Virus record (IMG/VR): IMGVR_UViG_2521172589_000011
Strand: one strand, 5' to 3'
Source: a virus
Taxonomy: Duplodnaviria; Heunggongvirae; Uroviricota; Caudoviricetes
DNA length: 27,160 nt
Below, one piece after another: positions 3,001 through 6,000 of this stretch. The number at the start of each line of letters is the position of its first letter. Position 1 is the stretch's first letter. The position numbers are program-made.

Positions 3001-6000
3001 CCTGAGTGGGTAATAAATCCCGCTGCCTGCTACGAGAGAGGAACATGTGATGCTGAAACTAATTTTGATCTAGCACCAGGATTGGATGAGTCGCGTAAAA
3101 AAATAGAAAGCGCAGCATCACATTTTAATAATGTTTATCTTGTTGACCCGTACTACCTAATGCTTAAGAATAAAAAATACACACCTTTCGCAATGGGATA
3201 CCCTATGTACCATGACAATGGTCATTTAAGCATCAATGGAATGATGTGGATTGCGGAAAAATACTTGCAAGATAATAAAAACCCACTTGAAGATTAATTG
3301 AGTTATAATTTTTATTGGTAATATGAACCTCTTAATTTATGAGAGGTTCATATTTTCATTGAAATATTTAATTGTGCTCCTTAGCAAAGCGCAAGCTACC
3401 TGCGCTTAATACTGCAGATAACGTATCTCCCACTCTAGTCACACTTAAGTTGCTAGTTCCTGCAATGTAACTAACAGTTGTCGTTGTTGCCAGTGTCATA
3501 ACTATTGGTATAGTTATGACTCGTTCTGTACCTCCGCTATCAACAAACTGAACAGATAAAAACTGAAACCTTCTATTTATTTTATATGAAAATGATAATC
3601 CAGATATGGATAATAAACCACTTTGTCCTATTTTTATATTCCAATCAGAAAAATCAGTTATGTTAGATGGGTCTATATTATTTTGCGAGTACCATGATGT
3701 TATTGCGCCTGATGATGTTTTTCCTTTAAAATAAACAAATGAACTACTTGCTTTTTTAAAATTATTATCACATATGATAACCACCTCTTGAGTTGATAGT
3801 TTAGTTTCATCATAGAATACGCTGGTAAGTACTGCGTCATCTGCGTTAACACCCCGTATCTCAGAAATCTTAGTCACACCAGCCTTGTCAGTGTCTTCCG
3901 CTTTGTTTATGAGAGAGTCTGTATTGTTTACCCACGCAGACAGCACTCTAGCCACAGGGGTGTTATACTGACGCATCAATTGCGAAACACCAGAGATAAT
4001 ACCTGCCTTTAAAGTGATTTCCTGGCAATTGTTGCCGTAAGCAAGGATTGGTTTATTCACCCCATCCCATCTATAATTGCCAACTTCAACATCAATTCGT
4101 CCACCACTGCACCATACAACAGCATTTGTTTGTCCTCCGTCAAACTTAACCCCATAAACAGCACCAACTTTAACAAAAGCGTAGCGTTCGGCGTTTATTT
4201 TCATTTGAAGCGGGTTGTTGCTGGTTCCCGTGACGTACCCAATATCTATACGGCAATTATCTCCTGCGCCATCTACGTTAATGCCGCGGTGGTCAGATCC
4301 AATAACCCCGCCAGAGCCGACAACGCTACAGTTTTCACAAGTAAAGAAACCAATAGGGTTGTTGTTGTGCGGTTTAGAATGAATGGAGTTATATTCTGTA
4401 CCTATCTTGCCGTTAAGAATGTAGGTAACATTTTTCATAACAGCTGTAATTGTGTAGTTATTGCCATCCCAAACCGTTGCATCAGGGTTAAGAAAATGTG
4501 CAAAGGACCACATACCCCCGGAGTTTAACCCCATAATTTCTGGCCCTACCGTGGGGTCATCGTAACGCCCCATAACTGTAACCCCAGCTTCGTGGTGTAT
4601 TTCTATATTATCTCGTAATGGATGAATAGAGCCAAGAACATAAAAAGTACCTGTTGCACCATATTCAAATTTACTGAATCTTGTGTCTCTTACCAGTTTT
4701 TGAATTACATTACGGTTATGCGCGGCGTTTAGCGGAACATATTCACCTTCAATAATGCCAGCGGAAGCGAAATTAGGCGTCATTAAAATAAGATACCCAC
4801 CAACTGCAGAAATATAAAATATAGGTGACTGTGGTTTTTCAGTTGTAAACACCCAATCTGTTACAACTGGAACATTATAATAATAAGTTCTAACCTTTTT
4901 CCCATCTGTTAACCCTAATATTGATTGGGCCTGTTCAACGGATGAGCATTCGAGAATAGCACCACCAACGATAATGACTCCTGCGCTCCCCTGTAATTCT
5001 TGCCGTAGCTGATCAGGATCATACTTCAACACATTCGGAAAATAGAACTGCTGCGAACCATACGCATCATAAACAGCCATAGAATGGCCTTGCACAGTTA
5101 CGAACTTGGCAATCTGTCCGTTATATACAGGATAACCAGCAGCGTTAATGATGATTGGTTGCGAAACAGGAACGTGAGAGCCGTCTTCGTTCTCCACATA
5201 AACCTGAATCTGGTTTTCAGGATTTACCGGGTCAGTGTCAATTTTACCGATATAAATTTTGCCATTGGCAACCGCTTTAAAAGAACGCGCCATAGTGAAG
5301 AGTTGCGAAGGCATGCTTACCACAACATTTGCGGTGATATCTGTCATTTAATTTGCTCCAGATACAAGGAATCGCCGCAGCATGGCTACGGTGAATTTTG
5401 GGCATAAAAAAACCCAGCCGAGGCTGGGTCGTTGCGTTGGTTATCTGTCAGTAGTTATGTACTGAAGGAGGTAATTCTTTATTCTTAAGTCTCATCCATG
5501 CGGAAAGATTCGTTGGTCCGTCTGGCTCATTAATATCAACATCTCGTGTGTGATTGATTAAAACGTCTCTCGCCATTCCGATAACATACGAGAACTCATG
5601 GCCATAGTCGTAGCATCTGCCGGAATAGTTCGATTGAATTTGTTTTAGCGCCAGATACAGTTCGCGGAATAATGCCTGTGAGCGGTTGGCATAATCCCAT
5701 AACCATACAAGGCTGTTTGCTTCTTTTGCAGAAAGCTCGTTGGTTTTCTTCTCTTGTTTGCCGATAAATTCACCTTCAAGCACTACCCTGTGGATGTACT
5801 CTACGGCCAGCGGGATTTGTTCAATTGAAAGTTCATCAATGCTGTCAATACCAAAACGCTGATGAACCATATTGTATGCATCGTCATAGCGAAGTCCTTT
5901 CTTTCCTACCAGCATGTTTACTGCATCGCGTAGCGGTGTTCTTTGCTCAACAGTGGTTTTCTTGCCTTTCACATACTCTCCATGTTTGCGAATCGAAGGC

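Follow-up and report, generated by a model that had tools for sequence, protein, structure and literature searches.

Near the left end of IMG/VR record IMGVR_UViG_2521172589_000011 (27,160 nucleotides; hereafter the window, meaning the whole stretch of DNA that was analyzed), a single open reading frame of 659 residues on the minus strand (3368-5347) encodes a tailspike, next to a gene for an acyltransferase. The locus raises the question of what this tailspike binds, and of whether its receptor-binding part and the neighboring gene share a history. An initial annotation, made from the sequence alone, had proposed that a P22-type head-binding domain is joined here to an unrecognized receptor-binding domain with an AT-rich 3' end, and that this module and an O-antigen-masking acyltransferase gene were acquired or exchanged together. 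We find that the gene has already been published, as the O104/K9-specific tailspike of a P22-like prophage carried by E. coli O104:H4. The explanation that we consider very probable for the locus as a whole is that this O104 tailspike of a P22-like remnant belongs to a mobile cassette with the acyltransferase gene and later exchanged its core with a CLB_P1-type gene.

Identity and architecture of the O104/K9 tailspike

Scholl et al. (2012; PMC3303846) described a P22-like tailspike of 659 residues (EGR74047) from the outbreak strain LB226692 and joined its residues 114-659 or 118-659 to the fiber of the R-type pyocin R2. The fusion was lethal to every O104 strain tested and to one O9:K9 strain, the K9 polysaccharide being identical to that of O104, while other serogroups were unaffected and pyocin-resistant mutants had lost the O-antigen (PMC3303846). 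The published O104/K9 tailspike is the gene in the window because the gene-specific parts of both primers from that study match exactly (4986-5005 and 4974-4993, starting at the codons of residues 115 and 119) and because positions 1160-5450, comprising the acyltransferase gene, the tailspike and flanks, are 100% identical to O104:H4 outbreak genomes, for example 2011C-3493, C227-11 and HUSEC2011. The neighboring EGR74046, which is the gene at 1375-3297, was flagged in the same study as a presumed O-antigen acetylase; the gene, its specificity and neighboring acetylase were already known, and the domain called unrecognized in the initial annotation is a published O104/K9-specific module (PMC3303846). 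A survey of receptor-binding proteins places that of the LB226692 prophage in group A and includes this protein and the fiber of phage CLB_P1 in an O104 subtype, whose members must match the receptor-binding domain of a validated protein with at least 30% identity and at least 60% coverage (PMC10408124); we find 77.5% identity to CLB_P1 over residues 113-659. The same domain has been reused in tailocin engineering (PMC11762384).

The gene divides into four segments:

5009-5347, minus strand: residues 1-113, P22/Sf6-type head-binding (particle-attachment) domain (Pfam PF09008, PDB matches)
4748-5008, minus strand: residues 114-200, linker plus the start of the receptor-binding module, with both published fusion points, 114 and 118 (NCTC9104 and CLB_P1 comparison)
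3820-4747, minus strand: residues 201-509, predicted bulk of the right-handed parallel beta-helix; "CLB_P1-type" block, GC 0.44
3368-3819, minus strand: residues 510-659 and stop codon, predicted final rungs of the beta-helix, then a C-terminal beta-sandwich; AT-rich, GC 0.33

Residues 1 to about 115 do track the head-binding domain of P22 gp9, as had been proposed: Head_binding (PF09008) is the sole Pfam match in the protein (residues 1-113, E = 2.7e-67), PDB sequence matches, to Sf6 gp14 and P22 gp9, end at residues 117-118, and the domain has 79% identity to P22 (PMC3303846). The remainder is likewise unlike the P22 endorhamnosidase. Past residue 118, comparison with all PDB sequences, using the single protein and a family profile, gave no sequence match to the receptor-binding domains of P22, Sf6 or HK620, and the region after the head-binding domain showed no receptor-binding homology to the P22 gp9 endorhamnosidase. 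As a search for relatives of the receptor-binding domain, the same PDB comparison returned only N-terminal adaptor domains with either query, and a family-alignment scan of GTDB species-representative genomes gave zero relatives.

At the level of structure, an AlphaFold2 model of residues 114-659, built with 25 homologs (mean pLDDT 89.5, pTM 0.83), predicts the beta-helix that the initial annotation had suggested looking for, with a C-terminal beta-sandwich, and a receptor-binding domain modeled as a parallel beta-helix agrees with assignment to Lederbergvirus. The best Foldseek matches are the tailspike depolymerases K2-2 TSP, CBA120 TSP2, HK620 and Sf6, at about 10% identity; the modeled fold class is clear, which does not hold for the enzyme class or the catalytic residues. 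The fold suggests that residues 114-659 may cleave polysaccharide, for which the family-invariant acidic residues D352 (in GSDHRGIN) and D504, together with the near-invariant D359, D419 and E514, are candidate catalytic residues. In the mechanism that we propose, the N-terminal 113 residues would dock the trimer onto the tail and residues 114-659 bind the O-antigen of O104 as well as K9, a polysaccharide identical to it, a specificity that the published experiment shows.

Association of the receptor-binding domain with the acyltransferase gene

Two further features are needed to follow the history of the locus:

1375-3297 (PGAP start 1387), plus strand: AT3-SGNH acyltransferase, a putative O-antigen O-acetyltransferase, 640 residues, GC 0.34
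3320-3354, no strand assigned: hairpin in the gap that separates the convergent genes for tailspike and acyltransferase, likely a bidirectional terminator, found by folding

Across 5426 complete E. coli genomes, the acyltransferase gene occurs in 24 (at least 99.5% identity) and the receptor-binding domain is confined to exactly these 24, even with blastn set to a sensitivity for distant matches. O104 wzy was detected in 37 genomes, all 24 carriers among them, and the module is absent from 13 O104 genomes. The carriers comprise the O104:H4 clone and several other strains, in which the prophage occupies three sites on the chromosome (argW/intS, beside dacD, and bioA-ybhB). Within E. coli only O104 strains have the cassette, and a correspondence between C-terminal module and host O-serotype, which the initial annotation had named as a point to check, is present; as regards O-antigen specificity, these counts are a correlation (24/24 carriers with O104 wzy), the experiment being that of PMC3303846.

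Beyond these genomes, homologs of the receptor-binding domain, present in E. coli, Hafnia, Providencia and Enterobacter, come with an N-terminal adaptor of one of three types (P22 head-binding, PF18668 Tail_spike_N or T7 fiber). An orthologous AT3-SGNH acyltransferase (63-68% amino acid identity) lies convergently downstream of related receptor-binding domains at the loci that we number L008, L013/L014, L015 and L025, whose backbones include one with baseplate and sheath-initiator genes (L008), an Enterobacter hormaechei prophage of siphovirus type with lambda-like tail-tip genes (L013/L014) and a P22-like one (L015). L008 aligns with window positions 1405-4969 as one collinear 3.6-kb block of 67% nucleotide identity, running from the acyltransferase through the intergenic region to about residue 126 of the receptor-binding domain, while L013 and L015 have both genes in common (80% and 76% amino acid identity) despite their different backbones. 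The GC of the pair is below that of the upstream phage genes at the loci measured (L008, L013 and L015).

Since the two genes are linked in 24/24 carriers and three further backbones have an orthologous pair, in one case as a 3.6-kb block that aligns collinearly, their co-exchange is supported. The proposal of joint exchange of receptor-binding module and O-antigen-modifying gene thereby gains ground, and co-transfer of the two as a cassette, not universally, is well supported. The receptor-binding module, the terminator hairpin and the acyltransferase gene would together form one AT-rich cassette that was passed in one piece among phages whose tail-attachment domains differ. The hairpin, which is 100% conserved between alleles, has a 15-bp stem with T/A runs on either side (minimum free energy -26.1 kcal/mol, z = -5.7; 0/200 shuffles fold as well) and is probably a bidirectional terminator; a simple terminator scan missed it, probably because of its loop length, and folding found it.

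In Hafnia paralvei (L009, GCA_033899085.1, 5001-9676), a receptor-binding domain of 65% identity lies in a siphovirus-like prophage, and gtrA/gtrB/gtrC-like genes come after it. The O-antigen of one strain of Hafnia alvei contains 4-substituted sialic acid (PMC9631793), which, set beside the L009 domain, hints at a shared sialylated target.

Base composition and internal mosaic of the tailspike

GC content is 0.407 in the tailspike gene, 0.342 in the acyltransferase gene and 0.474 in the remaining window. Divided as in the initial annotation, positions 3368-3950 (GC 0.362) differ from 3951-5347 (GC 0.425; chi-square p = 0.010) and are indistinguishable in GC from the acyltransferase gene (p = 0.39). 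The maximum-likelihood change point lies at residue 509 (window 3819), where GC falls from 0.43 to 0.33, and its likelihood ratio was equaled in 42/5000 codon shuffles. The low GC shared with the acyltransferase gene is therefore upheld, and its extent is revised: the AT-rich drop takes in roughly 150 codons at the 3' end instead of 200, with GC at third codon positions (GC3) of 0.18-0.24 in residues 501-650 and first-position GC down to 0.24-0.40 in residues 501-600. GC rises again to 0.41 across the final 50 codons, and a second AT-rich patch spans residues 151-250 (GC 0.34-0.35, GC3 0.18-0.20). The composition of the tailspike is patchy, not two-part, and the break lies about 130 nucleotides further 3' than had been proposed.

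The window was compared codon by codon with the allele of NCTC9104, a strain carrying O104 wzx and wzy (PGAP annotation), with the MRE162 allele, and with the lytic phage CLB_P1. Nucleotide identities to the first and the last run as follows:

Residues 1-200: NCTC9104 92-100%; CLB_P1 has an unrelated N-terminal adaptor, then 57-87% from residue ~120
Residues 201-360: NCTC9104 64-73%; CLB_P1 95-100%
Residues 360-500: NCTC9104 55-73%; CLB_P1 82-95%
Residues ~520-659: NCTC9104 55-88%, reaching 100% from residue ~639; CLB_P1 32-62% (residues 551-659: 31-42% at the amino acid level)

Over residues 114-200 identity to the NCTC9104 allele is 97-100% and holds up to residue 200, and the 100% identity that begins at residue ~639 continues through the intergenic hairpin and the entire acyltransferase gene; block identities of the proteins of 24 homologs give the same mosaic pattern. 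Identity to CLB_P1 drops sharply between residues 500 and 520, at the place of the GC change point (residue 509). Because similarity to CLB_P1 ends where GC falls, the composition break represents a real recombination junction, and the breakpoint suspected in the initial annotation coincides with a change of relationship. The NCTC9104 allele is AT-rich across the whole receptor-binding domain (GC 0.30-0.40, GC3 0.18-0.30), and the CLB_P1 counterpart of the C-terminal part has a GC of 0.41-0.52 and a GC3 of 0.32-0.57. By sequence relationship, the AT-rich tail (residues ~510-659) appears to belong to the other lineage, that of the NCTC9104 allele type, and the higher-GC middle of the O104:H4 allele would be a secondary patch common to CLB_P1. 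The MRE162 allele is a third variant, whose residues 400-500 are nearer to CLB_P1.

An alternative is that the AT-rich 3' end reflects amino acid or codon constraint of the C-terminal beta-sandwich and has no separate origin. It would account for the match of the AT-rich part with a distinct structural region and for the fall in first-position GC over residues 501-600. We regard this as very improbable, since GC3 also falls, to 0.18-0.24, the homologous region of CLB_P1 has the higher GC and GC3 given above, and the breakpoint in CLB_P1 identity coincides with the GC change point; the constraint reading is largely refuted.

The simplest reading is an AT-rich ancestral receptor-binding domain whose central beta-helix was swapped with a CLB_P1-type gene. 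In the O104:H4 allele, the beta-helix middle (residues 201 to ~509) would have been exchanged, later than the assembly of the cassette, with the tail-fiber gene of a CLB_P1-type lytic T7-like phage, and this central exchange would have left the AT-rich 3' end noticed at the outset. The notion that only the last third shares ancestry with the acyltransferase gene gives way, as in the NCTC9104 allele and in the L008 cassette the AT-richness extends across the entire receptor-binding domain. The head-binding domain has a nucleotide identity of 93-100% to other E. coli P22-like prophages, and 26/36 nucleotide differences between the outbreak and 55989 tailspike alleles fall within the first 107 codons, indicating that this domain was itself exchanged with other P22-like prophages.

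Several observations weigh against the combined explanation of a mobile cassette with a later core exchange. The composition break alone is only moderately significant (p about 0.008), the central exchange may have run either from prophage to CLB_P1 or the reverse, and a NeuD-like acetyltransferase encoded in the O104 gene cluster itself could explain the reported O-acetylation. Some relatives lack any modification gene (L007, L010, L011, L018 and the lytic phage CLB_P1), others have gtr-type genes instead (L009 and L019), and L017 has a short, unrelated AT3 gene; given such other cargo or none, linkage of the pair is frequent, not obligatory. This variety could also mean that the region downstream of temperate-phage tailspikes is a general insertion slot for O-antigen-modifying morons, with the genes acquired independently, and the ~100% conservation of the E. 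coli acyltransferase beside two receptor-binding alleles of 55-73% nucleotide identity indicates that the histories of the two genes are not always shared. Independent acquisition is nevertheless unlikely in our view, as the same acyltransferase ortholog adjoins the same family of receptor-binding domains on three or more unrelated backbones, L008 aligns without interruption across both genes and the intergenic region, and L013 and L015 have both genes in common on differing backbones. As a separate test of transfer direction, we asked whether the 55989 allele is nearer to CLB_P1 than the outbreak allele is; it is not (96.9% versus 97.3%).

The acyltransferase, its surroundings and known systems

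The acyltransferase combines Acyl_transf_3 (PF01757, residues 14-335) with SGNH (PF19040, residues 403-631), the AT3-SGNH architecture, and matches PHROG 6705 "O-antigen acetylase" with E = 3e-147. Its gene lies downstream of the tailspike gene and convergent with it, with the integrase gene beyond. As judged from family membership, the most likely role of the enzyme is O-acetylation of the O104 repeat unit, acting from the periplasmic side, and such a modification would amount to lysogenic conversion. A role in O-acetylation was only suggested in PMC3303846, and our literature search on the function of this acyltransferase found none.

If the acyltransferase masked the O104 receptor, as the initial annotation had supposed, lysogens would be protected from phages with this tailspike (superinfection exclusion). 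Precedents exist in other P22-like phages, g341c and BTP1, in which O-antigen acetylases adjoin the tailspike, and GtrC of BTP1 protects against BTP1. Against masking, CLB_P1, whose core is 97% identical, was isolated on 55989, an acyltransferase carrier. At the phage level it is listed as O104-specific in PMC10408124, a source that also notes, in favor of masking, that modification genes behind a receptor-binding protein may prevent superinfection. The pyocin AvR2-O104.1, which bears this receptor-binding domain, killed the acyltransferase-positive outbreak isolates, 55989 and 2009EL-2050/2071, and equally killed the acyltransferase-negative O104 strains RM9387 and 94-3024 (PMC3303846, Table 1). 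In the genomes, acyltransferase and tailspike genes are both present in the outbreak strains, 2009EL-2050/2071 and 55989, and both absent from RM9387 and 94-3024, in which O104 wzy is present. Because O104 strains are killed by the pyocin whether or not they carry the acyltransferase, the enzyme does not decide receptor use by this domain, with the caveat that pyocin killing may need few receptors and that acyltransferase expression may vary among the killed cultures. Masking is quite unlikely on this evidence, and the description of the acyltransferase as a masking enzyme is doubtful.

On the side of the acyltransferase away from the tailspike lie two further features:

1145-1188, plus strand: tandem array of an octanucleotide, (GTTTAATA)n, that spans the intS stop codon (TRF, 5.5 perfect copies)
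1-1158, plus strand: IntS-type prophage integrase at the prophage end, argW site in O104:H4 (Pfam Phage_integrase, Arm-DNA-bind_3)

The repeat, about 190 nucleotides 5' of the acyltransferase start, also occurs at L002, L003, L004, L005, L020, L021 and L022, and its copy number varies: 4 in 55989; 5 in the window, 2009EL-2050 and L022; 7 in L021; 9 in NCTC9104; 12 in A11; and 13 in MRE162. It may modulate expression of the acyltransferase or may simply be a variable-number tandem repeat marker. The integrase is annotated as intS adjoining tRNA-Arg in 2009EL-2050. In NCTC9104, MRE162 and A11 (L002, L003 and L005), the last ~60-85 nucleotides of the integrase gene (window ~1075-1160) are kept beside the acyltransferase gene, and the remainder was not found at that spot; the retained 3' end marks the left edge of the conserved cassette.

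Repeat, acyltransferase and tailspike alleles could also be tied together by an arms race over an O-acetylated O104 antigen, in which the CLB_P1-type block was exchanged for tolerating or requiring the acetylated receptor and (GTTTAATA)n switches the modification on and off. Two tailspike alleles do stand beside the same ~100% conserved acyltransferase, one with the O104:H4/CLB_P1-type core and one with the AT-rich NCTC9104-type core (55-73% identical in nucleotides), and we consider this extension distinctly improbable.

Upstream of the tailspike and on the same strand are P22-type virion genes (Pfam matches to P22_portal, P22_CoatProtein, Phage_stabilise, Sf6-type needle knob, P22_gp7 and Inj_translocase; the block includes a gp20-type ejection protein and terminase), at the end of which the tailspike is placed as in Lederbergvirus, with Ant and Arc-type genes between the block and the tailspike. 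A LacY-type sugar symporter frame (25913-27160, minus strand) lies beyond the P22-like late genes, which suggests that the early/lysis/immunity region has been deleted and that this is a prophage remnant, in agreement with the designation in PMC3303846. In two O104:H4 genomes, 2009EL-2050 (L004, 5209-7636) and FDAARGOS_348, IS1 replaces the first ~88 codons of the tailspike, which is truncated, and lambda-like early genes follow IS1.

An engineered bacteriocin against O104:H4 already uses this gene in practice for its specificity module, and what we add is incremental: the fold, a mosaic map in four segments, the 24/24/37 statistics, the cassette found across backbones and the variable octanucleotide repeat. 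The locus offers a clean, dated case of a near-identical block inside a receptor-binding domain common to a lytic phage and a prophage, and of a receptor-binding domain and an O-antigen acetyltransferase traveling as one cassette across podo-, sipho- and myovirus-type backbones, and the map of swappable segments is useful for tailspike and tailocin engineering.

Among known systems, EGR74047 of O104:H4 LB226692 is the same gene, with zero sequence difference. The tailspikes P22 gp9, Sf6 gp14 and HK620 have the head-binding domain in common with it, Sf6 gp14 being the closest solved match, and, as here, a parallel beta-helix, an O-antigen target and a gene placed after ejection-protein genes. 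CLB_P1 (KC109329), a Kayfunavirus and lytic T7-like phage of O104:H4, matches the tailspike through gp17/gp17.1 at 92-100% protein and 82-100% DNA identity over residues 201-500. Its fiber has a T7-type N-terminal adaptor where the tailspike has the P22 head-binding domain, the final ~150 residues of the fiber share only 31-42% identity with the tailspike and are not AT-rich, and no acyltransferase adjoins the fiber gene. In KC109329 (L001, 3362-5640) the receptor-binding protein is annotated as two coding sequences, with an apparent frameshift near the equivalent of residue ~220, and in the newer record OZ035730 it is in one uninterrupted piece. The acetylases g341c Oac and BTP1 GtrC (AT3-SGNH, OafA/OafB type) have the same AT3 and SGNH architecture and the same placement between tailspike and integrase in a P22-like prophage, an order of tailspike, O-antigen acetylase and integrase that is standard in such prophages. 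The acyltransferase described here is ~33% identical to them, and its putative target is the sialic-acid-containing O104 unit, as opposed to the rhamnose/abequose units of Salmonella.

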